Shown here one piece after another: positions 9,447 to 52,433 of a stretch of DNA of 64,000 nucleotides (the stretch's first letter is position 1; every line of letters begins with the position of its first letter). The stretch is from a virus, in IMG/VR virus record IMGVR_UViG_3300022555_000009. One strand, given 5' to 3'. Under the pieces are notes generated by a model. That model had not been told where the DNA came from, made no database searches, and saw nothing but the letters and a program-made list of their open reading frames with translations. Position numbers and translations under genes: made by a program.

Positions 9447-9550
9447 TATCTTTAGAAAGGAGGTGATCCTAATCTAAAGGTGACGAAAATGTACAAAAAT
9501 AAAAGGTAGGAATATGCTAAGAGGCTCTCTGAAAAGAGAGCCTCTTTTTT
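9447..9550 (+). ncRNA. Candidate small RNA with perfect 17-nt complement to the 16S rRNA 3' end
   Basis: TATACT -10-like box at 9435-9440. TAGAAAGGAGGTGATCC (9453-9469) lies within a hairpin (CTTTAGA 9450-56 / TCTAAAG 9473-79). The element ends at a strong terminator. Confidence 0.45.
9519..9550 (+). terminator. Rho-independent terminator between convergent genes
   Basis: AAGAGGCTCTCT-GAAA-AGAGAGCCTCTT plus a T-run. Confidence 0.9.
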
Positions 9551-11366
9551 ATACACTACTCATCTCAAATATCATCTTCGCTGTATTACGATCTAAGTAC
9601 TGTTGAGTACCGAACTTTTTAGTTGTGAAGTCCTTATCTTCCAAATTCATATCTCGAACACAATCTAAGGAGTTATCAATAATTAGGAGATAGGTGTACA
9701 CCGTCTTCTGTTGCCCAATACGATGAATACGAAATATAGATTGGTTATACTCTGTATAATTCCAGGTTCTATCAAAGTAAATAGCTATATTAGCCTCAAC
9801 AATAGTCACGCTGCTATTAAGAACCTGTATGCCCGCAATAAGAATATTGCGATCTTTCGAGGCTTGAAAATCTGCTATGATATCTGCCTTGAATTCATCC
9901 AGGGTCCTCCCCTTCGGTACTTTGACTTCCCCGTTGATGAGATAGGGCTGCCTCTTTTCTAAGATTACCGCCAGTTCTTGACCGACTGTAGGATGAGAGC
10001 ACCATATAATAATTTTTTCGTTAGGATGCTTTTCTAAGAGATCATCCAAAGCTCCCATCTTACAGTGATTAGAGAACTTAAATTTTTCGACCTTGCGAAT
10101 AAGATTGTCTGGTAACTTTGTTTCATGGTTTAAAAGTAAGCTTGGATTATCGATGGCTAAGGAGAGATAGGGGAAAGAATTAAACACAGCTCGAGAGTCT
10201 ATGCCTCCGTAAAATTCTTGTATGGCTCGTAGTTTTTCTACAACGATTCCTTGGTAGATTTCCTTCTGCTCATCAGATAGCTCCACATAAATCTTCTGTA
10301 TGAAGTGCTCAGGCAACTCCAAAACGTCGTCAGCAAATCTTCGAGTAGACACTGATTTTACAATATCAGCCATCTCTATAAGTTTATTGGGTTTGAAGTA
10401 ATTGATAGCATATAAAGAAAATCTATTGCCAGTATCTGCATACTCTTGTAGCCACTCGAAGTAAGAGAAATTCTTTACTAAGGCGGGATCTAAGAACTTC
10501 AGCTGTGAGTAGTACTTCTCTTCTCTGTCTGCAGGAGTTCCTGTTGCAATGTATCTATACTGAAAGAAGGGAGCGGCAAGGTGTATGGCCTTAGATTGCC
10601 TGGCTTGAGGATTCGCGATATTATGTGATTCGTCCAGGATAATGATGCCAACATCTCCCTGAAGCCAATCTCGAAAGGGAATAGGACACTTACGATAATT
10701 CTTTGAATTGGATATCTCTTCCTGATACTCATCAGATACTAAGAGGAAAGATCGGTAGCTGCAGATGACAACATGAGATTTCACGTCGTCAAAAGGTCGC
10801 CGGTTTTTAATTCCCCCAACTCTAACATCTGATGAGTCATAGTTAGAAAATCTCCCCAGTTCTCTCTTGATATTGTAAGTGCCAGACCCTGAGGTAATGA
10901 TAAGTACTTTTCTGACGTCTTTGTATTTACGGAGTAATTCAAGGGTGTTACATAGTATCCAGCTCTTCCCGGTACCTTGTTCATTAAAAAGAGCATATCG
11001 GTTGTAACTGGAGCATTTAGATAGGTCTTCGAGTTGGAAATATTCATGCGGCGCCTTCCCCATAATGGGTTGTACTTTTAAATCATCTTTAGTAAAAGGA
11101 ATTCTTTGAAATTCGATCGATCTCTTGGGAGTCTTCAATATCTCTATCTGAGACCATACTTCGTTTGTAATATAAAGTTCTTCTACGTCTCCCAAAGCGT
11201 CTATGACAGAGTCATAAACAGACGTCGGAATACACCACTGTTTACTCTTTGGTTCAAACTGACATCGATATCTCTTATATATAGTAAGATCTGTATCGAA
11301 GGCGTTGACCGAGAATAATTGACTGGCATATATTTTATCGTCGCGAACTAGAATCTGAATGCTCAT
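9549..11366 (-). CDS. SNF2-family (SF2) helicase/translocase
   Basis: EQGTGKS (Walker A), ILDESH (motif II), ATGTP (motif III) and QSIFRIHRIGQ (motif VI). Confidence 0.92.
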   Translation of the reverse strand: MSIQILVRDDKIYASQLFSVNAFDTDLTIYKRYRCQFEPKSKQWCIPTSVYDSVIDALGDVEELYITNEVWSQIEILKTPKRSIEFQRIPFTKDDLKVQPIMGKAPHEYFQLEDLSKCSSYNRYALFNEQGTGKSWILCNTLELLRKYKDVRKVLIITSGSGTYNIKRELGRFSNYDSSDVRVGGIKNRRPFDDVKSHVVICSYRSFLLVSDEYQEEISNSKNYRKCPIPFRDWLQGDVGIIILDESHNIANPQARQSKAIHLAAPFFQYRYIATGTPADREEKYYSQLKFLDPALVKNFSYFEWLQEYADTGNRFSLYAINYFKPNKLIEMADIVKSVSTRRFADDVLELPEHFIQKIYVELSDEQKEIYQGIVVEKLRAIQEFYGGIDSRAVFNSFPYLSLAIDNPSLLLNHETKLPDNLIRKVEKFKFSNHCKMGALDDLLEKHPNEKIIIWCSHPTVGQELAVILEKRQPYLINGEVKVPKGRTLDEFKADIIADFQASKDRNILIAGIQVLNSSVTIVEANIAIYFDRTWNYTEYNQSIFRIHRIGQQKTVYTYLLIIDNSLDCVRDMNLEDKDFTTKKFGTQQYLDRNTAKMIFEMSSV

Positions 11367-12160
11367 TGGAGATTATGCTCCTTGAAATATTTTCTCCAGT
11401 CTACGCCGCCTTTATAGTACTCCCCCTCACGAGGATCTGCGATAACAATATCTACTGTCAAAGGAACACCCTTCTGCCAGGGTTCCATTCTTTCAAATAT
11501 TTCTTTGATCTTGGCTATCACCTCTTTCATTTCATTATCCCAGATAATGAAATCTACAGAGTCGTGAACCATACCTTGTATATAGGATTTAATATTATTG
11601 GCTTCTTTCCAGATTTGGAAATCGACCATGCAACCCATTACTTTACAAGCCTCATCATTTTGAATAGTCGTGTTGGCTAAGATATTATAAAGGCCCGCTA
11701 CTTCTTTTCTATCCTCATCCTTACCTTTTAGCATAAGAACTGGCGTTCTGCGAATTGCTCCGTGGTAAGAACGAACATATCCCTGCTCCTCGCCTATCTG
11801 CTTATTACGCTCAATGCGATCAGCAAGTCCTTTATATGTCTTAAAGAATTGGTCTCGAATATAATCAGCGACCGTAATGTAGCCCCACATTTTAGGTTCT
11901 ACATCTTTATACTTCTTAGCAATATTAAATTTCTTGTCGTAGAGCTGAAATTCCTCTATGAAGTCGTCGACCTGCTCTTGCGTCCATTTTACAGATAAAG
12001 TAGTCTCGGCGAATGTTATGGAAGCCATACCGAATAAAAATCCGAAGTTAACTGCTTTCGCCATTTGTCTGTATACATCGTAAATGTTATCTTTCTGGCG
12101 CAGTCTCTTAAATTCAATTTCTGTTATGGGCCTCATGACTTTTCTATGTGTGATTTTCAT
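11363..12160 (-). CDS. polA: Family A DNA polymerase, C-terminal fragment (motifs B and C only)
   Basis: RQMAKAVNFGFLFG (motif B), GYVRSYHGAIRR, NTTIQ and MVHDS (motif C). Motif A and the exonuclease domain are absent. Likely start is the ATG at 12160. Confidence 0.88.
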   Translation of the reverse strand: MKITHRKVMRPITEIEFKRLRQKDNIYDVYRQMAKAVNFGFLFGMASITFAETTLSVKWTQEQVDDFIEEFQLYDKKFNIAKKYKDVEPKMWGYITVADYIRDQFFKTYKGLADRIERNKQIGEEQGYVRSYHGAIRRTPVLMLKGKDEDRKEVAGLYNILANTTIQNDEACKVMGCMVDFQIWKEANNIKSYIQGMVHDSVDFIIWDNEMKEVIAKIKEIFERMEPWQKGVPLTVDIVIADPREGEYYKGGVDWRKYFKEHNLQ

Positions 12161-12201
12161 ATAGAGAATATATGAATCAGCCTTTGTATATATTGGTCCA
12201 T
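12161..12201. promoter_or_regulatory. 41-bp divergent promoter region with a TATATT box on each strand
   Basis: TATATT lies 6 nt before the polA-C ATG and 7 nt before the sbcC ATG. There is no SD on either side. Confidence 0.55.
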
Positions 12202-14289
12202 ATGACAATACTAAAACTTGAGCTTGAAAACTTCATGAACATAGCTAAAGCCGACCTAGATTTTAAAAACGGCATAAATGTTATTTCGGGAAAAAATGGA
12301 GCAGGAAAAAGTGCTGTGCTTGAAGCTATCGCTTTCTGCATGGTTGAACGCAGAAGAGGGGACTCTTGGAAAGACTACATCAGGTCCGGAACAACAGGAT
12401 TTAAAATCCACCTACTCATACAAAAGAGTGCGGCAAAAGCGGATGTCGTTGAATTCAGATATGAAGGTAATATAAAGCAAGGCGCGACCAGTAAGCAAAT
12501 TATCTACCAGGGTAAGACCTATGTGAATTCGGAGTGCTCTGATTTTATAAAGGACACCTTTGACTCCGAAATGTTGGAGAATATTATTTTTACCCTACAG
12601 GATAGTAAACCAGTCACTCACCAGACTCCTCTGGAGCGTAGGACCATATTTAAGAAAATATTCAATTCTAATTTCACAACCGCTGTTGAGAAAATTAAAG
12701 CGGATATTGAACAAAAAGAGGCTGAAAGCACAACCTTAGCATACGAGATAAATGCCATTAAATCCAAAACTTATCCTAAGGTGAGATTAGAGAGTATGGA
12801 TCCTCAGGAATTGAGTGTCTATCTTACAGAGCAATCTAAGATAGAAGATAAGATGAAAGAATCTACGTTCGATAATGAATTTAATACCCTCTACCTGAGC
12901 AACCGAGAAGTCTTCGAAAAGTATGTGTTGCCTTCGTACCTAAATACTAGGGATGATGTAACGAAGCTTGAGAAAGAAATCGGAGATTCTCTAGTGAAAA
13001 CAGAATTCTGCGAACGCGACATACGAGCTGGTGAAGCACGGCTTAATACTTTAGATATAAATATCAGTGGGCTCAAGCTCAAAATAGAAGCTCTTGAAAA
13101 ATCTCTGGACTCTGAGAGTGATTCTATAGGAGACCTTGAAAAAACTTTACAAGGTTTGAGAGCCCGTATCCGGGAAGCTCAGGTGCTTAGGTCCATCTCC
13201 AATACACATTTGGAAACACATAAGAAAGGTAAGTGCGATGCTTGTGGGCAAGATTGTGATATAACAAGGATCCAGGAGTTAGAGACCGGGGTTAAAGTTA
13301 TTTCTAGGCACATTCAGGATTTAATTTCTGATGAAAATCAGGTTACGGCCCAGCATACTTCCTGTGTAGCGCGTGTTAAAGAGATCGGTAAAACCTTAGA
13401 TGACTTAAGGAATACTCTTTATCGTGAGAATGTGGGGGTCGAGAAAACAACAAAAAATCTTGAAAATAATCGACGTGAAATTACCCAGGATAGGCTATCT
13501 ACGCAGAGTCTACAAACGATTTTACAAGAGAAAACAAGAGAATTATGTAGAATAGAACCCGAGGTCGATCAGAAAGAAACATGGCTCAAAGAGAACGAAT
13601 CTCGATGGCAGGCCTTAGAAACTTCTGATCCAGCTATTTATGAAGAACAACTGAAAGGCATACGCGCTAAGATTCAGGATTATAATCAAAGATTGACATC
13701 TAGGTTAGAGCGAGAAGCTTTCAACAAGAAGCTAGATGAGCAGATTCAAAAAGATTCTGACCAGGTGCAAAAGCTATCTGAGAAGATAAATACTCTAGAC
13801 TTAGAAATCAAAAATCTCGAGTTCGTTAAGATGTTCTACGAGACTACGTTTCCCAATTTTATCAACTCAAAGGCCTGTACCTTACTGGAGTCTTATATGA
13901 ATAACTTCCTCAGCACAACTAAGGAGGGATTCCAATTTAAACTTTTGTCCACGAAGAAAGGTATAGACTTTTTATATAAGGCAGACCCCGCGTCAGAATG
14001 GTTGAATGTTAAGTTAGCCTCTGGTTTTGAAACTTCGGTATCTAATCTAGCTTTTAAATGTGCCGTGGCTTTTTCATACCAGTCTGGACTTTTGGTTCTC
14101 GACGAGCCTGACGCATACAGTTCTGAGTCTAATAGCGAGCGGTTATTTGAAACCTTGACCAGTATTAACGACGGATTTGAGCAGATGATTATCATTACGC
14201 ATAAGACTCAGGCTATGGAATTCTTAAAGGAGAACGGCGCCAATATTTATAAAGTTACTGATGGAGTCTTCGAGCAATCTGCTGACTAA
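12202..14289 (+). CDS. sbcC: SbcC/Rad50-like SMC ATPase (gp46-like)
   Basis: LELENF, GKNGAGKS Walker A, long coiled coil with CDAC zinc hook, ASGFE signature, LVLDEP and IIITH. Confidence 0.92.
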   Translation: MTILKLELENFMNIAKADLDFKNGINVISGKNGAGKSAVLEAIAFCMVERRRGDSWKDYIRSGTTGFKIHLLIQKSAAKADVVEFRYEGNIKQGATSKQIIYQGKTYVNSECSDFIKDTFDSEMLENIIFTLQDSKPVTHQTPLERRTIFKKIFNSNFTTAVEKIKADIEQKEAESTTLAYEINAIKSKTYPKVRLESMDPQELSVYLTEQSKIEDKMKESTFDNEFNTLYLSNREVFEKYVLPSYLNTRDDVTKLEKEIGDSLVKTEFCERDIRAGEARLNTLDINISGLKLKIEALEKSLDSESDSIGDLEKTLQGLRARIREAQVLRSISNTHLETHKKGKCDACGQDCDITRIQELETGVKVISRHIQDLISDENQVTAQHTSCVARVKEIGKTLDDLRNTLYRENVGVEKTTKNLENNRREITQDRLSTQSLQTILQEKTRELCRIEPEVDQKETWLKENESRWQALETSDPAIYEEQLKGIRAKIQDYNQRLTSRLEREAFNKKLDEQIQKDSDQVQKLSEKINTLDLEIKNLEFVKMFYETTFPNFINSKACTLLESYMNNFLSTTKEGFQFKLLSTKKGIDFLYKADPASEWLNVKLASGFETSVSNLAFKCAVAFSYQSGLLVLDEPDAYSSESNSERLFETLTSINDGFEQMIIITHKTQAMEFLKENGANIYKVTDGVFEQSAD

Positions 14290-15997: not shown

Positions 15998-17869
15998 GTG
16001 TCGACAATGGAGTTGAATGTAGCTGAGATGTTCGGTCCCGTGCTTCAGGGAGAAGGCAAGTCTCTCGGCGAGCCAGCTTTCTTTCTGAGGCTATCGAATT
16101 GTAATCTTATGTCCATAGGGTATAATCGAGGAATTTCTCAGCCAAAGATATGGATGAATAAAGGTGGAGAGAAAAATATACAAGATGTAAAGCCTGATGA
16201 TGTAATCTGGGCCACAAATGAAAACGGAAATCTCGTTGAAACAAAAGTTCTATCAGTATTCGAATACGACATCAAAGATAGAGTTGAGCTAATAGTCGAA
16301 GGGATAGATCACCCTGTTTACTGCTCAGGGGAGCACCCCTGGCTAACAAATCAAGGGTGGAAGAGAGCTGACGAGCTTCTTAAAGACGATGAAATAATGC
16401 ATTTTTCTAAGAAGCAGATTCAATCAGAAAGAATGAAAAAGTATAACCCTATTCATGATCCAGATACTATGAAAAGACATATTGAAAATACGAACTGGAC
16501 AACTCAGGGAGAAAAAATTAAAGGTGATATTCAAAGAAGGAAAGCTGCAGACACTTATGTAGACGCCGTTACTTCCATGAGACGCAATAATCCAGAAAAG
16601 TATGCAGAGATGAATAAAAATACCTCAGTAAGAATGACAACTAATAATCCAATGTTTAATCAGGAAGTAGTTAAAAAAAGTAGAGGGACCCACCAGAATA
16701 TAAATCAATATTACCCCTTTATGTCCAAATCAGAGAAAGATTTTTCTAATATTGCTATGAAAATGGGGCTGCCAGTTAAGTATATTGGAAGATTTGATCT
16801 TCAGATTAAACACAAGAGTAAAACATACTACCCTGATTTTATAATTGAGGGGACAAATAGACTTCTGGAAATATACTACTCAAAAGGGAAATTATATTCT
16901 CACAGGAATGAACAGTGGAAAAAAGAAAGGCTGGAGGCCTTCGAGGCTAATGGCTATTCCTGCACGTTTGTAAATTGTTCCGAGAGCAATATTAATGATA
17001 TTAAAGATTTAATATCCACCGAAATAAAAATGCAGAACGGGGTAAAGATTATATCTGTAACAAAAGTTAATCAATTTAAAACCCATTATGAGGGAGAAAA
17101 ATCGTTATCTAATTCCGATACCCAGTTCAATATTACCACTAAGCCGATGAGAGCAATTGATATTATGTGTTACCCTTATCATAATTTCATAGTTGATGGA
17201 ATGGTTACGCATAATTGCGGCGGTCATAACGGTGAGAAAGTTCGCGATGGGTCCGCTACTTGGTGGTGTGACTCTGAAAAGATTTGGCGAGAAAGTAAAT
17301 CGTATACTCCTGGTGAAATTATTGAATATATTAAGGACGCGGGTGAGCTTGATAATATTAGATCTGGATCTACTCACTTAGTTATTACTGGCGGCGAGCC
17401 TCTCTTACGCAGGAATATCGATCCGCTAAAACTACTTATTGAAATGCTGAGGTATGATAATCTCGCAGATCAGACATTCTATCCTTATATTGAGGTTGAG
17501 ACGAACGGCACTTGCTCAACAGAAGACTTCTTGGATACGTATGTTGATCAGGTTAATTGTAGCCCTAAACTAGCTAATAGTGGTGTGCCTCGAGAGCAAA
17601 GAATTAAGCAGGATGCTATTGAGGAGATAAAGAATCATCTTAACTCTTGGTTCAAATTCGTTGTTAGCAAACCTGAAGATTGGAATGAGATCGAGAAAGA
17701 TTTCTTGCCACTTATATTTAAGGATCAGATCATACTGATGCCTGCGGGAGCATCTCGCGAGGATCTTTTAGTTACGAGTCCTATTGTATGGGAGATGGCT
17801 TGCAAGCATAACGTCAAGGCTACAACAAGACTGCAGACCATAACTTGGGATAAGAGAGTTGGCGTATGA
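15998..17869 (+). CDS. queE: 7-carboxy-7-deazaguanine synthase (radical SAM) interrupted by an intein
   Basis: EMFGPVLQGEG...FLRLSNCNLM/C...WCDS, VITGGEPLL, EVETNGT, NCSPKL and FKFVV. The spliced product is about 255 aa. Confidence 0.9.
   Translation: MSTMELNVAEMFGPVLQGEGKSLGEPAFFLRLSNCNLMSIGYNRGISQPKIWMNKGGEKNIQDVKPDDVIWATNENGNLVETKVLSVFEYDIKDRVELIVEGIDHPVYCSGEHPWLTNQGWKRADELLKDDEIMHFSKKQIQSERMKKYNPIHDPDTMKRHIENTNWTTQGEKIKGDIQRRKAADTYVDAVTSMRRNNPEKYAEMNKNTSVRMTTNNPMFNQEVVKKSRGTHQNINQYYPFMSKSEKDFSNIAMKMGLPVKYIGRFDLQIKHKSKTYYPDFIIEGTNRLLEIYYSKGKLYSHRNEQWKKERLEAFEANGYSCTFVNCSESNINDIKDLISTEIKMQNGVKIISVTKVNQFKTHYEGEKSLSNSDTQFNITTKPMRAIDIMCYPYHNFIVDGMVTHNCGGHNGEKVRDGSATWWCDSEKIWRESKSYTPGEIIEYIKDAGELDNIRSGSTHLVITGGEPLLRRNIDPLKLLIEMLRYDNLADQTFYPYIEVETNGTCSTEDFLDTYVDQVNCSPKLANSGVPREQRIKQDAIEEIKNHLNSWFKFVVSKPEDWNEIEKDFLPLIFKDQIILMPAGASREDLLVTSPIVWEMACKHNVKATTRLQTITWDKRVGV
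16112..17215 (+). mobile_element. Intein (368 aa) with PD-(D/E)XK/Vsr-like endonuclease, inserted in the radical-SAM cysteine motif
   Basis: Ser1, KNIQDVKPDDVI (block A), CSGEHPWLT (block B), YYPDFII...LLEIY and HNFIVDGMVTHN/C (blocks F and G). Confidence 0.9.
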
Positions 17870-18490: not shown

Positions 18491-19267
18491 ATGAAAGACT
18501 TCATACAATGCAGAACATGCGCAAAAAAGCCTGGACCTAAAAATATGCCAGGCTTTTTTTACGTAGACTTAGAAAATGGACAGCAAGCCATAGCAGAGTG
18601 TTCTTGCCACAAGAGATTTGTCAAGGAAGAACTTAATAGAATCAAAGCAAGTAAGGCTGGGCTTTGGTACTCTGATTATACTCCGGCGAATGATTATGTG
18701 GGAACTAAAAGTTTACAGAATGTAGAACACTTAGAAGAGTATATCAGATTTTTTAAATCTCCTGCCTACTCTAGTTCCATCATATATATGCACGGCCCCA
18801 ATGGATCCCAAAAGACGACGTTAGCTCAGTGGGTCGGTTTGAGCCTTCTTCGTAAGGGATTTAAGGTCAAATATATTCTTATGCAGTATCTTGTATCGAA
18901 GTTAGCTAACGAGAACTTTGAGACTGATGAAGAGGCTATTAAAGAACTCGAGGATCTGAAGAATGTAGATTGTCTCATTATAGACGAGGCCTTAGATAAA
19001 AATAAGGTGACCCTGTATAAGTCAGGATACCAGTTGCCCTTCTTGGAGTCTTTCATTAGAGATAGAGTAGATTATAGGAAAAAAGGCATTGTATTCGTTA
19101 GCAACGTAGCGCCTAGTGATATTGAGAGCCAAGGATTCGGCAAATCTATACAAGACTTTATAGTTAGGAACACTGTTCCCAAAGAAACAGATCTTTTATT
19201 TAAAGATGTGTATCATCAGGTTAAGTCCTCTTTTGATGTTGATAAGTTGTTTAAGGGGAATAAATGA
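18491..19267 (+). CDS. DnaC/IstB-like AAA+ helicase loader
   Basis: N-terminal CxxC...CxC, HGPNGSQKT (atypical Walker A), LIIDE and VFVSN. It lies directly upstream of dnaB. Confidence 0.8.
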   Translation: MKDFIQCRTCAKKPGPKNMPGFFYVDLENGQQAIAECSCHKRFVKEELNRIKASKAGLWYSDYTPANDYVGTKSLQNVEHLEEYIRFFKSPAYSSSIIYMHGPNGSQKTTLAQWVGLSLLRKGFKVKYILMQYLVSKLANENFETDEEAIKELEDLKNVDCLIIDEALDKNKVTLYKSGYQLPFLESFIRDRVDYRKKGIVFVSNVAPSDIESQGFGKSIQDFIVRNTVPKETDLLFKDVYHQVKSSFDVDKLFKGNK

Positions 19268-20655
19268 AAAGATCTAATCAAGACTTCATAGTACCGGCAG
19301 AATTTCAAGTACTGAAAATCCTTATTGACAACGAAGTCGATTGCCAGATTCTAAATGAGGGAATGTTTCCTCATGAGGAAGCTAAAGCTCTCTTTCAGTC
19401 AGTAATGAAATTGAAAGACAAGGGCGAGTCTATAACTGAAGGATCTTTACTACGAGAAGCTAACTTCCTCAACGACGATATCGACTTGCCTATGATCAAG
19501 AGTCTGATGGATCATAAGGCCGACCTCTCTAATTGGTTTCCGGCTATAGAGACCTTGCGGAAAGCTAGTATTAAGTATCAGTTGAACTTAGCTTTCAATA
19601 AGTTAGCCGAGACGACTAGTTTACCGGACGACTTAGAGTCTACTGGTATAAGTAACTCTCTATACGAAGCTCAACAGGTTTTGTCTCGCGGTAGTAAAGC
19701 TACTGAGTCTAAGACTTTGGAAGAATGCTTAGACGATTATAAAGACGTTCTGGAAATGAGACGTTTAGGAAAGTACTATCCTTTCGGCGATCAGTTCCTT
19801 GATTCTCATTTGACGAAGAAGGCAGCGCCCGGGCAAGTCATCATGGTTGCTGGTTCGACAGGCACAGGTAAATCAGCGTACGCTTTAAATATTCTAAATG
19901 GTATGATTAACTTAGGTCAGCCATGTATGTACTTCTCCTTGGAAATGGATACGGAGTCGACCTTCGATAGACTATTAGCAATGAGAACTAGCGTGCCTGT
20001 TGAAGGCTGGTATACATCTGGCAATCAAATAAATCCTCTTCTGCGAAAGCTTGAAGAGGAGCGAAAGCTCTTAGAGAATAAGCCGTTCAGGTTTATCGAT
20101 GATCCCAATGTCGATCTCGGTACTATACAATCTCTCATTCGAGAATTCAAGATGGTATATAGGGTCGATTACATTTTTGTCGTTATTGACTTGGTGACTA
20201 TGGTGAAGGAATTCTCTATGATGACCGGACAAAAGTCTTTAGCGAATGCTATAGAATTCGCGGTTAATAGGCTGAATGCTATGGCCAAGACAGAGAACGT
20301 GTGTTTCATGTGTGTGGCTCAGATGAATAGAGAGGCGGATAAAGAAAAGATAACTGAAATTGAAGATATTGATAAATTGAAGCCTACGCTAAACCATATC
20401 AAGAATAGTAATGCTATGGCAGAGCGAGCGAGAACAGTGCTATCTATATTTAGGGGCAAGTATTACGCGGACAGATATTTTCCAGATGACGAGGCAGTAG
20501 AGTATATGGACGATATCATGGAAGTATCTATTTTGAAGCAAAGCCAAGGAAGAGTTGGCTCTATAGGTAAGTATTTGTTCGAAGGTGAGTGTTTTCAATT
20601 GAAGCCTTACATAGAAGCAGACCACATTGATACTAATTCTGTAGGCGAATACTGA
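19264..20655 (+). CDS. dnaB: Replicative DNA helicase
   Basis: AGSTGTGKS, YFSLEM, VVIDL, VAQMNRE and ILKQSQG. Confidence 0.9.
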   Translation: MKRSNQDFIVPAEFQVLKILIDNEVDCQILNEGMFPHEEAKALFQSVMKLKDKGESITEGSLLREANFLNDDIDLPMIKSLMDHKADLSNWFPAIETLRKASIKYQLNLAFNKLAETTSLPDDLESTGISNSLYEAQQVLSRGSKATESKTLEECLDDYKDVLEMRRLGKYYPFGDQFLDSHLTKKAAPGQVIMVAGSTGTGKSAYALNILNGMINLGQPCMYFSLEMDTESTFDRLLAMRTSVPVEGWYTSGNQINPLLRKLEEERKLLENKPFRFIDDPNVDLGTIQSLIREFKMVYRVDYIFVVIDLVTMVKEFSMMTGQKSLANAIEFAVNRLNAMAKTENVCFMCVAQMNREADKEKITEIEDIDKLKPTLNHIKNSNAMAERARTVLSIFRGKYYADRYFPDDEAVEYMDDIMEVSILKQSQGRVGSIGKYLFEGECFQLKPYIEADHIDTNSVGEY

Positions 20656-37549: not shown

Positions 37550-38094
37550 TATGTACCTCTATTATTTAGTGAGTTTTCGGTATTAGTCGAACCCACTTCA
37601 GCTATGATATTTTTCGATAACTGAGAAAGTACATATTGCTGTGTTTGCCACGACTCCAATAGTCGGCGTAGAAAAGACACCTTATGATCTGCTACTAGGA
37701 CTTCATCATTTAAAGCTCTATACTCCTCTTTGAATTCCTTGCGCACCAACATCTCTAGTTCTTTAGCTGCTACCCACTTCTGAGCTGACATATCAGATCG
37801 ATTTTCTCTATGCCGTATGTCAATATACTTATCCGCATACCAGTCGTCGAATTCTTCCTTCTTCTTAGTATGGTCAATCTTGGCTACATTGTAAAGACTA
37901 AGAAGAGTTAAATATATTAGCTGATAATTGCATAATGCTGAATTGAGTTCGTGAAAAGAGATTTCTTTGTCGGATCCGATGTGAGAATACTCTTTCATCT
38001 TTTCGATTTGAGCATTGACAAAAATTATAAAAAGCTCCTCCGGAGGAGCTTTTTGATCAAGAATACTGGGCTGCTTCACTGGTCGCTGTTCCAT
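37549..38094 (-). CDS. UvsY-like recombination mediator candidate
   Basis: All-helical 181 aa protein translationally coupled to recA. It contains FDDWYADKY...ELEMLV. Confidence 0.55.
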   Translation of the reverse strand: MEQRPVKQPSILDQKAPPEELFIIFVNAQIEKMKEYSHIGSDKEISFHELNSALCNYQLIYLTLLSLYNVAKIDHTKKKEEFDDWYADKYIDIRHRENRSDMSAQKWVAAKELEMLVRKEFKEEYRALNDEVLVADHKVSFLRRLLESWQTQQYVLSQLSKNIIAEVGSTNTENSLNNRGT

Positions 38095-40223
38095 TACTCA
38101 TCTCCTAAGTCGTCCGATTCTTCGTCGGCTTCTAGAGAATCTAGTACTGTCGCTTTAGTAAATGATTCATTTACTATGCGTTTACAATCTTCAAATTTTT
38201 CTGGGTTGGCTTTGAGGTAAGTCAAAAGCGAATCCCTACCTTGTCCTTTCCAACCCCAAACATCGTTGGACATCCAACCTGCGCCAGCGACCTTTACAAT
38301 ACCTAGATCCATGATGAACTGGATATACTCGTTATCGGGATCAAAACCAGTCTCATACTTTAGATCAAGTATGGCGGATCTCTTAGGAATACCCACTTTG
38401 TTTTTCACATTTCGAATCTTTACAACGTTACCTATAACAACTTTCTTTATAGCGATATCTTCCATCTTAGATACTTTAGCTCTCCAAGAAGCGTAGAACT
38501 TAATAGCTCTTCCACCAGGAGTAATATCTTCTGGCTTTCCATTAGGAGACCACCCACCTATATTATCGCGAACCTGATTAAGAAGAATAAGGGTAATATT
38601 GAATCGAGATATATAAGGATTTAATTTACGTAGCCCCTGCGAAAATAGCTTAGCAGTGGCTCCAAAATTCGATTTCCCATATACATCTTCGACTTCAGCT
38701 GCTGAGGGTGTTGCTGCAATGGAATCATAAATAATGCATCCTATCTGGCCTGTCGCAACAAGCTCTTCCATAATAGTAAAAGCTTCCTCTCCGTTCATAG
38801 GCCTCACGAATATGAGATCTTCATCGGCAAGACTTAGTCCGGCTACCTGAGCGTACTTCTTTTCGAAAGAATGTTCCATATCAATAAAGAGTACCATCTT
38901 AGGTCCACCATCTGTTCTTCGTTGGAACTGACCTCCAATATAGGAACTGATAACAGTATTGTGTGTAGGAATAAAATTATCTGTAATATACAGATGCTCT
39001 ACATCGTCTACCATGATACATGAACATTCTTCTTTTCCCACATACTCGACGCTTTTGATATATTGATATCTAATTGTCTTCCTTGACTTCGAAAGAAATA
39101 AATCTTTTTTTCGCTCCAGAGCGAAAGGAGATCCCAACTTCTGTGGCAGCGCCAAGTGTAGCCTATACGATAGAGCTCCTTCTTTTTTTTCTCCTTTGTA
39201 GGTGTACGAAGTCTTTTTTACTTTTATCCTGGCTGTGCCTCCCAGGCTATGAACAATATCGACAACATCTTCAGCTAGCTTTTTGCTAGAGGAAGAGTAT
39301 TCAATGCCGCTGTGTTTAACATCCTTGCCAATATGCCCATCGGTGTCCAGTAAACCCCGAAGCAAATTCATTCTATCCTCTATAGAAGACCATTTATAAT
39401 CGAAGGGAATAAACTTATCATAAGAATTTCTACCTTGAAGGTCTAGTTGTTTTAGTATTGCCGGAAGAGACCCCTTCGACTTTATTCTCCAATCATAGAA
39501 GGAGGCTTGAGACAACTCAAACCCCAAAATACTTTTTATCGAATCTATAAGTTGTTGATCTTCAGAGGAAAATTGAGTCATAGCCTGAGTCATGCATCCA
39601 TCACCCAAAAGAAGTCCTAAAACATAAGGATCTAAGGGCAAGCTTTTTTTAAGGAACTCCTGAGGCTGAATCAATTCTAAATAATCTGCGTCAGGACTAT
39701 TTATTTTCCCATATTTAGAAAGAGACTTATTGATATTTTTTGCCAGATCCTCTGTGGTCACTGTTTTTAAGCAGGAATCCTCAAAATTTTTAGATTTTCT
39801 AGCCCATCTTGTAGAATACTTTGAAGACTTAACGTTCCATAGATGATCTCTTCCCGCCCTTGTTGTAGATCCATCTCGAAGGGTTATCTCAAATACATCT
39901 TTTTCTCCCTGCGGAAATACACCCGTGACATTAGTTACTCTCCCTGAAGGAGTACAAACCTTATCACCTACCTTAAGATTTCCCATAAGGGTCCATCCGG
40001 TTGGTGTCAGTACCCTAGAACTATTAGGCTGTTCTTTGCCACCGCTCTCCGGCCCAAAGAATTCTATTATACGACCGAGAGGAACTCCTCCACCCATAAT
40101 ATAATTCAGCTGAGGAGAAGACATCACTAATCTCCTCACGAGACCAGCTTCCTCTACATTGGGTAGGGAGTCGGAGTAATCCTTCTTTAATTTTGTTAGA
40201 ACTTTTGTTAGTTCCTTATTCAC
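38094..40223 (-). CDS. recA: RecA/UvsX recombinase with intein
   Basis: GGGVPLGRIIEFFGPESGGK/T, FIDMEH, IYDSIAA, LNQVR, TPGGRAIKFYAS and VKNKV. The spliced product is about 350 aa. Confidence 0.95.
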   Translation of the reverse strand: MNKELTKVLTKLKKDYSDSLPNVEEAGLVRRLVMSSPQLNYIMGGGVPLGRIIEFFGPESGGKEQPNSSRVLTPTGWTLMGNLKVGDKVCTPSGRVTNVTGVFPQGEKDVFEITLRDGSTTRAGRDHLWNVKSSKYSTRWARKSKNFEDSCLKTVTTEDLAKNINKSLSKYGKINSPDADYLELIQPQEFLKKSLPLDPYVLGLLLGDGCMTQAMTQFSSEDQQLIDSIKSILGFELSQASFYDWRIKSKGSLPAILKQLDLQGRNSYDKFIPFDYKWSSIEDRMNLLRGLLDTDGHIGKDVKHSGIEYSSSSKKLAEDVVDIVHSLGGTARIKVKKTSYTYKGEKKEGALSYRLHLALPQKLGSPFALERKKDLFLSKSRKTIRYQYIKSVEYVGKEECSCIMVDDVEHLYITDNFIPTHNTVISSYIGGQFQRRTDGGPKMVLFIDMEHSFEKKYAQVAGLSLADEDLIFVRPMNGEEAFTIMEELVATGQIGCIIYDSIAATPSAAEVEDVYGKSNFGATAKLFSQGLRKLNPYISRFNITLILLNQVRDNIGGWSPNGKPEDITPGGRAIKFYASWRAKVSKMEDIAIKKVVIGNVVKIRNVKNKVGIPKRSAILDLKYETGFDPDNEYIQFIMDLGIVKVAGAGWMSNDVWGWKGQGRDSLLTYLKANPEKFEDCKRIVNESFTKATVLDSLEADEESDDLGDE
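38958..40034 (-). mobile_element. Class 3 intein (359 aa) with LAGLIDADG endonuclease, inserted in the Walker A motif
   Basis: Starts EQPNSSRVLTPTGW with no N-terminal nucleophile. WCT triad: DHLW, CSCIMV and PTHN/T. Endonuclease motifs LGLLLGDG and LRGLLDTDG. Confidence 0.92.
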
Positions 40224-40933: not shown

Positions 40934-41226
40934 AGACCCTTTCCTAGGAAGAACTCACCGAGACTAAGAACAAACTTATCTACGGTTGTGCATTCCCTCA
41001 GCTTCCTTTGTAGTAGAATATAGTGTCTATCTCCGAAAGATACTCCATGGTCCTCAGTTTTCTTTTTGATTAAATCTGATACTTGGCCAAAGGTGAGACT
41101 CTTCCATTTGTGACCCGATAACTCATTCTTAAACAGATCCTCTACAACCGAGAGCATCGAAGGATACTTTACGATCACTTCTTCTTCAGGAGGCTTCAAG
41201 GTTTCAGTATGCATTCCATTAGTCAT
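40930..41226 (-). CDS. Hypothetical protein
   Basis: 98 aa ORF with a GGAGGAG RBS, overlapping its neighbours. Confidence 0.65.
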   Translation of the reverse strand: MTNGMHTETLKPPEEEVIVKYPSMLSVVEDLFKNELSGHKWKSLTFGQVSDLIKKKTEDHGVSFGDRHYILLQRKLRECTTVDKFVLSLGEFFLGKGL

Positions 41227-42409
41227 TTCTCATGCTCCTCGGAGGACGCACCCCAATGATCTCCACATTTCTCTCGTGGAATTCCTTGTCAAACTGCTCT
41301 TGGCGAGTAAGAGGAGTTTGCTCTACCATAGGTCGAATAGCGTTGCTCTTCGAGAACCAATTAGCCATCTTGCTGAGAAAGTATGCCTTGCGGAGGTATG
41401 GCTTTGTCTCTTTTGAGAGATCATCCATAACCACTAGAAGTTCTCGAAGGCCAGGACTTTTAGCCATCGCCTTAGTTGATGCTTCATAGTACTCATTCTT
41501 TGTATACCCTGTCATACCATACACATAGGCGTCCACAAGAGCCGAGTAGGCGATATTGAAAAAATCTTCGATATTGAGATCCGCTATGTCTGTAAAGAAA
41601 GTGAGGTCTCTATTTAAGAGCTTCATCAAAGTTCCATTAATGGTGCTTTCATCGATAATACCGAGATTAGATTTAATCTCTTCGACTGTATAGTACTTGC
41701 CTACGAGACATTTTTCTAAGTACTGAACACCCTCGCGAAGAGATCCGCGAGCAGATCCGGCGATAGAGGCTAATCCTGCGAGCTTGAATGAATCTGGAAT
41801 ACTTTTATCATTCCAGAGATTCATCTTCTCCAAGATACCCTTGAGAGCTATCATAATATCTTTTGTATTGAAAGGTTTAAAATTGAAGGTTTGGCACCTA
41901 CTCTGTATAGCGGTAGGGATGCCAGTATTAAACATAGACAGGAGAATGAAGTGTACATGACTTCTGGGCTTCTCTAGGATCTTCAACATCGCACTTTTAG
42001 CCTGCGCGCTAAGTTGATCAGCTTCCTCAATAATGAGAATTTTCTTCTTATCATACATAGGAGCCGAATCTGCGATCTGGCCGAAATCAACTACGTCATC
42101 CTTACCCGAGAAGGAGGATCCGTCTAGTACTACTACATCCCTATCGAAGCGCTCTTCGATGATAGACTTGCAAGCCACACATTCACAGCAAGGATCGCCT
42201 TCTTTTGTGAGACTCTTACAAACTAGAGTCATAGCGACAAGGTGTGCCGCTGTTGTTTTTCCTGTTCCAGAAGGACCCTTCATTAACATGGCTGTGGGCC
42301 AATCTCCGGAAGTTTGTCTAGCCTTTAGTTCTTTTACAACTCCTTCTTGATTGTATATATCTGAAAACTTTCTAGGCCTCATTATAATAGACAATTGAGT
42401 AACTCCCAT
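41219..42409 (-). CDS. dnaX: DNA polymerase III gamma/tau-like clamp loader subunit
   Basis: MRPRKFSDI, GPSGTGKTT, PCCECVAC zinc motif, IIEEADQL, LKILEKP, IQSRC and GSLRE. Confidence 0.92.
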   Translation of the reverse strand: MGVTQLSIIMRPRKFSDIYNQEGVVKELKARQTSGDWPTAMLMKGPSGTGKTTAAHLVAMTLVCKSLTKEGDPCCECVACKSIIEERFDRDVVVLDGSSFSGKDDVVDFGQIADSAPMYDKKKILIIEEADQLSAQAKSAMLKILEKPRSHVHFILLSMFNTGIPTAIQSRCQTFNFKPFNTKDIMIALKGILEKMNLWNDKSIPDSFKLAGLASIAGSARGSLREGVQYLEKCLVGKYYTVEEIKSNLGIIDESTINGTLMKLLNRDLTFFTDIADLNIEDFFNIAYSALVDAYVYGMTGYTKNEYYEASTKAMAKSPGLRELLVVMDDLSKETKPYLRKAYFLSKMANWFSKSNAIRPMVEQTPLTRQEQFDKEFHERNVEIIGVRPPRSMRND

Positions 42410-44125: not shown

Positions 44126-44890
44126 TTACGTGGATAAATAATTACTAGTAAAATCGGCCGAAGTAGCAATAGTCTGAGATTTAAATGTTATGCTTATTTC
44201 TCCAGATATTGGGTATCCCTTGGAGTCAAGTTTATTGGAGAATTTAAAATTAGCTGTTTCTGCTAAGTAATTTTTTAAATGTAGAAAATCGGGGAAACTA
44301 TTATTCGCTCCGAAAGCTACGGTCCAGGTACTCGATACAGTATCTGACGACCGAGTCGCGGTTTTAAAATAAGATTCTCCGAATGCTGAAAAAGCGCTGA
44401 AGGCGTTGGTGGCCGGAGCGGTTAATAAGTTCCCTACGGCAATCTCAGAGGGCACGCAAGCAGACATTAGAGTCATAATGGGACTAAAAACTTCTGTGTT
44501 GCCGTCCCAGGCATTCATTTGTCCGAATTGTAATTTGAGAGTGATAGAAAAGTTTGCAGGTAAGGATTCTTTCCAAGCACTAGCCATATAGTACTTATTA
44601 TACATTTTTTGACCTAGAGTATCCGAGGCAGTTGTTATCGCGGAGAACACGCTACTGATGGCGCCGGTGCCAGCAGCCTTTTTCATAGATTCTTGAGCTC
44701 CTTCAAAGAAAGCTTTGACTGGTTGAAATAACTGGTTAGTTATAGAAAATCCTATGTCATCTATATAGGGAAAATATAAGTCTAGGGATGCGGGTCCTGT
44801 CCCTGTTACGGTGCTTTTAGTTAATCTAACATAAGGACTACCGTTAGGAAAAGTTTTTGGGTCCGAGTAAAGAGCGGTGCTTAGGGCCAT
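44126..44890 (-). CDS. Tail tube initiator / gp48-like protein
   Basis: DSKGYPISGEISITF tube-fold motif. It follows the tape measure gene. Confidence 0.6.
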   Translation of the reverse strand: MALSTALYSDPKTFPNGSPYVRLTKSTVTGTGPASLDLYFPYIDDIGFSITNQLFQPVKAFFEGAQESMKKAAGTGAISSVFSAITTASDTLGQKMYNKYYMASAWKESLPANFSITLKLQFGQMNAWDGNTEVFSPIMTLMSACVPSEIAVGNLLTAPATNAFSAFSAFGESYFKTATRSSDTVSSTWTVAFGANNSFPDFLHLKNYLAETANFKFSNKLDSKGYPISGEISITFKSQTIATSADFTSNYLST

Positions 44891-52123: not shown

Positions 52124-52433
52124 GTTGTTAGCACTCTCTGTACTACCGTGTTTGAGTATACCATTCCCTTCTCTCGTATAACTTTGACTATATTATTTAT
52201 AGATAAGCCGGACTCTCTTAATTGCTTTATAATAAATAACTCCTCCTCGCTGAGCTCAGCTTTGTTAGGGGCTTTTCGCCCCTTTAGTTATATAAATAAG
52301 TTTTTACTTTGCATTTTTTTCCTACCCTCTTATGCTCTGTCCATCTGTTGCGCAACTTACCGGTGGTTTGCCCCACGTACTGATGTCCATTCTCTATATT
52401 AGTTATCACGTATACTATTCCAAATTGTTTCAT
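52124..52433 (-). pseudogene. Truncated GIY-YIG homing endonuclease remnant
   Basis: 52433-52284 encodes MKQFGIVYVITNIENGHQYVGQTTGKLRNRWTEH... then stops after 49 aa. An out-of-frame HTH-like tail (LRESGLSINNIVKVI) follows. Confidence 0.75.

Follow-up and report, generated by a model that had tools for sequence, protein, structure and literature searches.

Why would a phage carry an intact gene for only the last third of a DNA polymerase domain, and where is the rest of the enzyme? The question is raised by IMG/VR virus record IMGVR_UViG_3300022555_000009, of which a stretch of 64,000 nucleotides was analysed (the window). On the minus strand, at 11363-12160, it encodes a family A DNA polymerase (PolA) from just before motif B to the C-terminus. 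A reading of the bare letters (the sequence-only reading) had taken this gene for one half of a two-part PolA from distant loci, possibly held together by a degenerate, non-splicing split-intein remnant. Our analysis leads to a similar view. We consider it fairly probable (about 70%) that the PolA of this large freshwater phage is a two-subunit enzyme held by a non-splicing clasp made of half a Hint domain, the intein fold; we infer the end-to-end binding and the activity of the complex.

The C-half, annotated from its translation and Pfam, is an open reading frame (ORF) of 265 amino acids (aa) with an ATG start and an in-frame TGA 25 codons upstream of it. It comprises a putative clasp strand, the fingers O-helix (motif B), the palm (motif C), and the C-terminus. 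Its match to Pfam DNA_pol_A (E 5e-18) is confined to the C-terminal third of the polymerase domain (profile positions 237-376 of 381), as expected of the stand-alone gene described earlier, and it also matches PHROG 17 (DNA polymerase). The key residues of both motifs are invariant across 21 homologues: N38, F39, F43, and G44 in motif B (RQMAKAVNFGFLFGM, residues 31-45, 12026-12070, minus strand), where R31 and K35 are nearly so, and H199, D200, S201, and D203 in motif C (VHDSVDF, residues 198-204, 11549-11569, minus strand), which holds the catalytic Asp. Motif C reads HDS, not HDE, with Ser throughout the clade at the position of Klenow E883 (S201, window 11558-11560). The same 265-aa gene was called on contigs in 32 blocks of a public collection (longest contig 140,908 bp), and several independent contigs span position 12160, which rules out an assembly break there. 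Neither motif A nor the exonuclease was found in the window by tblastn with three full-length phage PolAs or by Pfam and PHROG scans of the large ORFs, in agreement with the earlier reading. A weak tblastn match of the SIO-2 PolA at window 44606-44869 was considered as an N-half and proved to be a PmgG-like head protein.

The missing half was reached by a gene-by-gene walk along one 79,790-bp contig. It is a gene of 710 aa (P0001; L016:5823-7955, minus strand), and wherever the window overlaps the chain of loci leading to it, the two agree at 100% identity. The two halves lie on one molecule and on the same strand, 38.2 kb and about 40 genes apart, with the C-half before the N-half in the direction of transcription; the two-part PolA from distant loci thus exists at the level of genes. 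Pfam DNA_pol_A_exo1 (PF01612) matches N-half residues 212-376 (E 2.8e-14), and profile positions 29-198 of DNA_pol_A (PF00476) match residues 477-659. Exonuclease motifs Exo I-III are present with D229, E231, D284, Y357, and D361 conserved, and motif A reads DYSGLQLR with a nearly invariant D617; residue 622 is Gln throughout the clade at the position of Klenow E710 (DYSxLQxR). The helix DVHSTTGWNVF (DxHxxT) follows, and after it the protein ends in a 54-aa tail (residues 657-710) that is not polymerase sequence. Each half is an intact ORF that starts and stops at codons of its own, and together they contain every catalytic motif of a family A DNA polymerase, spread over two genes instead of one polypeptide.

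These facts bear on two simpler explanations. The C-half could be a decaying relic of a rearranged polymerase gene in a phage replicated by another polymerase, and the Pol III-type clamp loader encoded at window 41219-42409 would suit such an arrangement, as would the scope of the survey, which covers about 129 kb and thus part of the genome. We regard this as very improbable: both ORFs are intact with every catalytic motif, the same split recurs in dozens of lineages down to about 30-40% identity, and no other DNA polymerase domain occurs in the roughly 129 kb surveyed, with some 10-40 kb of the genome lying outside. An absent N-half, a separate complete polymerase, and an assembly break at about 12160 had been named beforehand as grounds for abandoning the two-subunit idea; the N-half exists, the surveyed DNA holds no second polymerase, and the contigs run across 12160. 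Alternatively, the two parts might be united in the RNA (trans-splicing) or by recoding (ribosomal bypass or a frameshift). According to the excerpted text of bioRxiv 10.1101/2022.08.31.505936, translational bypass can serve phage genes that homing-endonuclease cassettes have split, as in T4 gene 60. Here each half has its own start and stop codons, they are 38.2 kb and about 40 genes apart, and the C-half comes first in transcription, which makes joining of this kind scarcely credible.

What, then, are the sequences at the two broken ends? We compared them with relatives of both halves. Stand-alone homologues of the C-half (n = 23, 257-297 aa, 40-66% identity) begin with M-x-I-x-x-[RK]-x-x-x-R-x-I-[TS]-x-x-E-F and continue into motif B; the strand pattern is kept in 19/19 C-halves compared. 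In this phage the first ten residues, MKITHRKVMR (12131-12160, minus strand), form a basic beta-strand, beyond which the protein returns to polymerase sequence (R-x-I-T-x-x-E-F). For the N-half, a word-based search with residues 540-710 found a single relative, and an exhaustive search was needed, which gave 4,101. Among the best 150 of these, about 43 are N-pieces whose DxHxxT is followed by a similar tail. About 58 are polymerases without a break, in which the loop between DxH and motif B is short (31-36 residues). Another 11 are likewise unbroken but contain the whole insertion in frame (77-104 residues), and a few have loops of intermediate length; the more than 40 split N-halves are representatives of clusters at 50% identity. 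Because relatives have the insertion absent, short, or full-length in frame, its limits can be drawn from an alignment of these classes. It is a fingers-loop insertion of about 59 aa, composed of the N-half tail from FEINEV onward plus C-half residues 1-10, and bordered by F-C-R-N-K-E before and P-I-T-E-I-E-F after. The split form is kept down to about 30-40% identity in dozens of lineages. A scan of IMG/VR for relatives gave none, and a phage database gave only distant unsplit PolAs (23-27% identity).

The insertion resembles the middle of an intein. The same clade offers genuine inteins for comparison, all at motif B, after the Lys and before NFG: cis mini-inteins in P0019 and P0100, and split inteins with the N-terminal fragment (IntN) on P0059, P0063, P0089, P0123, P0125, and P0155 and the C-terminal fragment (IntC) on P0004. 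A hidden Markov model (HMM) was built from 35 tails, taken only from split N-halves that carry no genuine intein. It matched the IntN fragments at motif B of related PolAs with 24.7-39.8 bits (p 8e-10 to 1.4e-14 per sequence), the IntN of the same phage's NrdJ with 27.3 bits (p 1.2e-10), and cis inteins with 10.9-18.9 bits. These alignments run end to end, placing profile positions 8-52 on IntN residues ~55-103, and the end of the tail coincides with the end of IntN. Against a background of 5,554 sequences, half of them shuffled, the best shuffled control reached 8.1 bits, and the real matches at 16 bits or more were exclusively split N-pieces, IntN carriers, NrdJ-N, P0019, and one unsplit polymerase (P0166, 27 bits). 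Fused-insert forms scored 7-15 bits. With hhalign, a profile of the insertion made from this phage's two joined ends and eight fused forms aligned with an intein profile at a probability of 92% (E 7.6e-7); the alignment crosses the break and places MKITHRKVMR on the first IntC strand of genuine inteins. The likeness of these first residues to the opening strand of IntC, noted earlier from the letters alone, is borne out by both the conserved pattern in the 19 C-halves and the profile alignment. When the 54-aa tail alone was searched against all PDB sequences, the sole match below E 0.1 was 9HTH, the Aes123 PolB1 split intein (E 0.013).

Structure prediction points the same way. An AlphaFold2 model was obtained for the 68-aa insertion of a fused homologue (L017:4963-5166), with a predicted local distance difference test (pLDDT) score of 75.6. 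In the model, two long strands flank a small globular part with three short strands and a turn, and strand 48-56 is the equivalent of the C-half clasp strand. Foldseek ranks the NrdJ-1 split intein first among its hits for the model. Of 48,161 chains compared in an exhaustive fold search, only 34 reached Z >= 2. Inteins fill the first seven places, and some 24 of the 34 are members of the Hint superfamily, among them Hedgehog and a BIL domain, with the central region aligned (e.g., gp41-1 residues 37-108). The sequence-only reading had expected an N-half ending, after DxHxxT, in a short IntN-like beta domain, and this is what the tail match to the C-terminal half of genuine IntN and the Hint-like model of the fused form indicate. 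Structural neighbours of the tail in the Atlas are the ends of viral PolB, PolA, and DnaE pieces together with inteins, which we treat as a lead only.

The Hint fold consists of two C2-related units, each a globular part with two strands, and the natural split lies inside the second unit, as in gp41-1 (bioRxiv 10.1101/546465). In the phage PolA, homology to this fold extends over the central ~59 residues only. What survives is a beta3-like strand (EFEINEVII), the block B strand in degenerate form, the globular part as far as the split site, and a beta6-like strand. Block A with its position-1 Cys/Ser is missing, as the first ~54 residues of IntN have no counterpart. Block B lacks its TxxH: the TPDH of genuine IntN falls on FFADE here and on F-P/A-H-E in relatives, with Thr replaced by Phe and His by Glu. 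Blocks F and G (a terminal (H)N/Q followed by Cys/Ser/Thr at +1) are missing too; no such motif occurs in the 19 C-halves, as had been said of this one from the start, and the last ~25 residues of IntC are gone. Two apparent relics were rejected. The Cys that opens the tail (after NVF) is not an intein Cys1, being A/C/V among relatives and aligning with polymerase residues of uninterrupted ones, and NIYDV in the C-half is not a relic of block F, being unconserved, with EPFxxY in its place in relatives.

The loss of block A with Cys1, of the block B Thr and His, and of blocks F and G excludes splicing by the known chemistry. One might still suppose that the ends splice the halves by a non-canonical protein trans-splicing, given that they are homologous to split-intein parts and that unusual catalytic sets exist in class 2/3 and cysteine-less inteins (PMC11766414, PMC11923092). 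Such splicing is most unlikely with about 54 IntN and 25 IntC residues absent, a variable N-junction residue (A/C/V) in place of a conserved Cys/Ser/Thr, a block B stripped of Thr and His, and no terminal Asn/Gln followed by a nucleophile. The elements of association are retained, and the splicing chemistry is gone.

The retained elements also carry the expected charges. In the capture-and-collapse model of split-intein assembly, IntC, which is cationic, is first caught by a disordered anionic region of IntN (PMC11766414), and in gp41-1 a charge network joins IntN strand beta3 to beta6 at the start of IntC (bioRxiv 10.1101/546465). The N-half tails are acidic (mean net charge -3.4, of which the beta3-like strand has -2.4), and the partner strand is basic in 19/19 C-halves (net +2 to +4), so that acidic tail and basic strand here match anionic IntN and cationic IntC. 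The pairing of the long strands in the model of the fused homologue is a second, indirect pointer to association of the two ends. We propose that the N-subunit (710 aa) would supply the 3'-5' exonuclease, thumb, motif A, and DxHxxT helix, and the C-subunit motifs B and C. The break falls inside the ~59-aa fingers-loop insertion, which corresponds to the middle of a Hint fold: first comes the long strand preceding block B, then block B in degenerate form, the remainder of IntN as far as the canonical split site, and finally the first IntC strand. Probably the N-subunit's acidic tail and the C-subunit's basic N-terminal strand pair as in the capture step of split-intein assembly; since the splicing parts are gone or mutated, they would do so without a covalent bond. 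This pairing would hold the halves together and bring the aspartates of motifs A and C into one active site. The part of the earlier proposal that stands firmly is the degenerate, non-splicing intein remnant at both ends; its use as a clasp is the part that remains a proposal.

The distribution of the split is informative about its origin. We built a FastTree phylogeny on the exonuclease and N-palm region after removing the trait columns. The phage falls into a clade of 36 members, all with the module, of which 28 are split at the fingers-loop site, four are split before motif A, and three are fused; the remaining member is fused, has most of the module deleted, and branches from within the split forms. 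At least 11 changes of the split state are required across the tree as a whole, and close split/fused sister pairs are present. The second split site, just before motif A, is seen in N-pieces P0176, P0087, P0139, P0158, P0164, P0167, P0171, and P0172, whose tails match the clasp profile with 10-38 bits; P0150 and P0175 end at the same place and score only 7-9 bits, about what the best shuffled control reaches. In P0151 a genuine IntN stands before motif A, at PNIQQ|C. A once-mobile element with secondary re-fusions explains this sporadic pattern better than an ancient subdomain would.

Related phages show further stages. A relative in sample SRR30464847 (L018:4744-6027, L019:126-2240) has a PolA in three pieces. 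Its N-half (P0025, 64% identity) has the same tail, and its C part, beside the SbcC and SNF2 genes that also flank the C-half in the window, is itself two genes. The 146-aa middle piece starts with the clasp strand, which is followed by 25 residues of polymerase and then by a genuine IntN (CFSKGTEILT..TPDH), and the third piece (P0004) opens with an IntC at motif B that ends GQ|CNFG. In this arrangement a dead and a live split intein lie 25 residues apart in one enzyme. In a more distant relative (50% identity) the C-half again lies beside SbcC, without an N-half there. No endonuclease domain turned up among the neighbours of the two halves, nor beside the C-half in relatives L018 and L020.

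The most serious alternative is that the insertion is a lineage-specific subdomain at the tip of the fingers with another job, such as contact with DNA or a replisome partner, and that ordinary interfaces hold the halves, the break being incidental in a tolerant loop. In keeping with it, the polymerases of 11 relatives are unsplit and yet contain the insertion in frame, and the exo/pol split PolA of T7-like phages and the split PolB of PhiKZ assemble with no known intein-derived part (PMC10201439, PMC13648687). Against it speak the significant similarity to IntN, with ends that coincide with the canonical split site; the charge complementarity in 19/19 partner strands, together with the conservation of the split form; and the sporadic occurrence on the tree (at least 11 changes), joined by a second site before motif A, a pattern more suggestive of a mobile element than of an old subdomain. 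At 30-37% identity, moreover, split tails score 28-43 bits and fused inserts 7-15 bits, a comparison biased by a profile trained on split forms. On balance we think a fingers subdomain of this sort unlikely, though it deserves more weight than any other competitor.

Several observations weigh against the half-Hint clasp itself. Pfam intein models do not match the tail, which by itself gives only chance-level hits to Dicty_CAD and E1-E2_ATPase. Because no genuine intein occurs at the exact insertion site among the 150 best relatives, we infer the origin of the insertion there. The AlphaFold2 model is of a fused homologue and not of this phage's pair, and 2 of the 71 rows of its alignment were genuine IntN fragments. 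Foldseek gave the model no match at E <= 1e-3, and Z in the fold search was low, at most 3.8; in this model-based comparison the evidence is the enrichment of Hint folds among the matches rather than the score, and a low Z would be expected for half a domain. Fused polymerases keep the insertion, which may point to a role other than joining halves or to mere tolerance. The stretch of genome outside the survey belongs here as well.

Natural precedents exist for parts of this arrangement. Fractured phage-like genes with splicing split inteins include gp41-1, NrdJ-1, and IMPDH-1 (Dassa et al. 2009, PMC2677866). Like them, the PolA is broken at the canonical IntN/IntC site, its tail corresponding to about the last 48 residues of IntN and its strand to the first of IntC; it shares their acidic and basic charges and a phage replication gene as host, and the phage also has a genuine NrdJ split intein. 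Unlike in those systems, only the central part of Hint is present, every catalytic element is missing or mutated and no peptide bond can form, and the halves are 38 kb apart with no endonuclease gene between them. Splits by homing-endonuclease cassettes, namely T4 gene 39/60 with MobA and nrdA-a/nrdA-b of Aeromonas phage Aeh1 with MobE, are described in the excerpted text of the bioRxiv study cited above for T4 gene 60. As told there, an essential phage enzyme is likewise split within its catalytic domain, both broken ends bear conserved extra tails, the pieces form a non-covalent complex (which is probable here), and the endonuclease can be lost secondarily and the gene re-fused, events to which the tree points here too. 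The same excerpts do not present those tails as intein-derived, whereas the tails here are related to Hint, no endonuclease is left, and the halves lie far apart.

Two-gene polymerases are known as well. The exo/pol split in T7-like cyanophages was reported by its authors as the first for a PolA (Czernecki et al. 2023, PMC10201439), and the family B polymerase of PhiKZ consists of DNAP-N and DNAP-C (PMC13648687). These resemble the present case as polymerases made of two stable subunits from two genes, which here is known from the genes. The T7-like split, however, lies between domains and leaves bare termini, whereas the break here is inside the polymerase domain, between motifs A and B, which separates the catalytic aspartates and comes with a proposed dedicated joining module. 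The "split DNA polymerase" of a jumbo-phage review was set aside as a precedent, as it is Pol III alpha. Our literature search found no paper on a natural non-splicing intein remnant or a degenerate intein that serves as a subunit clasp.

Tentatively, and at slightly worse than even odds, we suggest that the central capture part of Hint folds and binds alone and is a portable, non-covalent joining module left behind by mobile intein and endonuclease elements at several PolA sites (the fingers loop and before motif A), probably also at the ends of split PolB and DnaE. If the half-Hint clasp is real, an intein can end in neither loss nor continued splicing, its binding half being retained as a permanent interface between subunits whose genes have since drifted apart in the genome. 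On the broader module reading, intein decay would be a general route to permanently multi-subunit essential enzymes and a natural source of a family of orthogonal split-protein tags. The two catalytic aspartates would sit on different polypeptides, which is unusual for family A polymerases. A clasp of this kind would also suggest that the lobe by which split inteins associate is a folding unit in its own right, and such a unit would be of use in the engineering of non-covalent split proteins. For annotation, "truncated" phage polymerase genes should be paired with their partners and not called pseudogenes.

In the window, the C-half gene is closely packed between two neighbours. Downstream, a translationally coupled SNF2-family helicase gene (9549-11366, minus strand; Pfam SNF2-rel_dom and Helicase_C, PHROG 62) shares 4 nt (ATGA) of its start with the C-half stop, which confirms the coupling claimed earlier; relative L018 has the same neighbour. 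The 5' side is bounded by a divergent gene for an SbcC/Rad50-like ATPase (12172-14289, plus strand; Pfam SMC_N and AAA_23, PHROG 77), which is also the neighbour in relatives L018 and L020. The gap had been given as 41 bp; the divergent gene is there, and the distance holds only with an alternative start at 12202, the gene callers placing the start at 12172 and the gap at 11 bp. With the divergent gene 11 bp (or 41 bp) away, there is room for nothing else 5' of the C-half. The promoter-like box ascribed to the C-half was not recovered: a consensus scan found no sigma-70-like site in 12161-12201.

Other replication genes stand alongside the family A polymerase. The clamp loader mentioned above is of the Pol III gamma/delta' type (window 41219-42409, minus strand), and a DnaB helicase is encoded at 19264-20655 (plus strand); neither a sliding clamp nor Pol III alpha was identified in the parts of the genome seen.

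The genome also contains other inteins. Its class II ribonucleotide reductase is encoded by two adjacent genes 28 bp apart (L016:1884-4610, minus strand, some 30-33 kb before the start of the window), whose products are joined by a genuine split intein with Cys1 and TPDH in IntN and an IntC ending N|C. In a relative (L019:2988-6893) the reductase is one protein of 1301 aa with a cis intein that bears a LAGLIDADG endonuclease. The RecA gene (window 38094-40223, minus strand) carries an intein with a LAGLIDADG homing endonuclease, and a 49-aa ORF with a GIY-YIG match (window ~52284-52433, minus strand; L012:299-448) is probably the remnant of a homing endonuclease. A further intein, some 350 aa long (Pfam Intein_splicing, residues 53-406), lies within a radical SAM (QueE-like) gene (window 15998-17869, plus strand). 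Genes for QueC, GTP cyclohydrolase I, and a Vut_1 transporter lie beyond the end of the window, and together with the QueE-like gene they indicate that the phage probably makes 7-deazaguanine-modified DNA.

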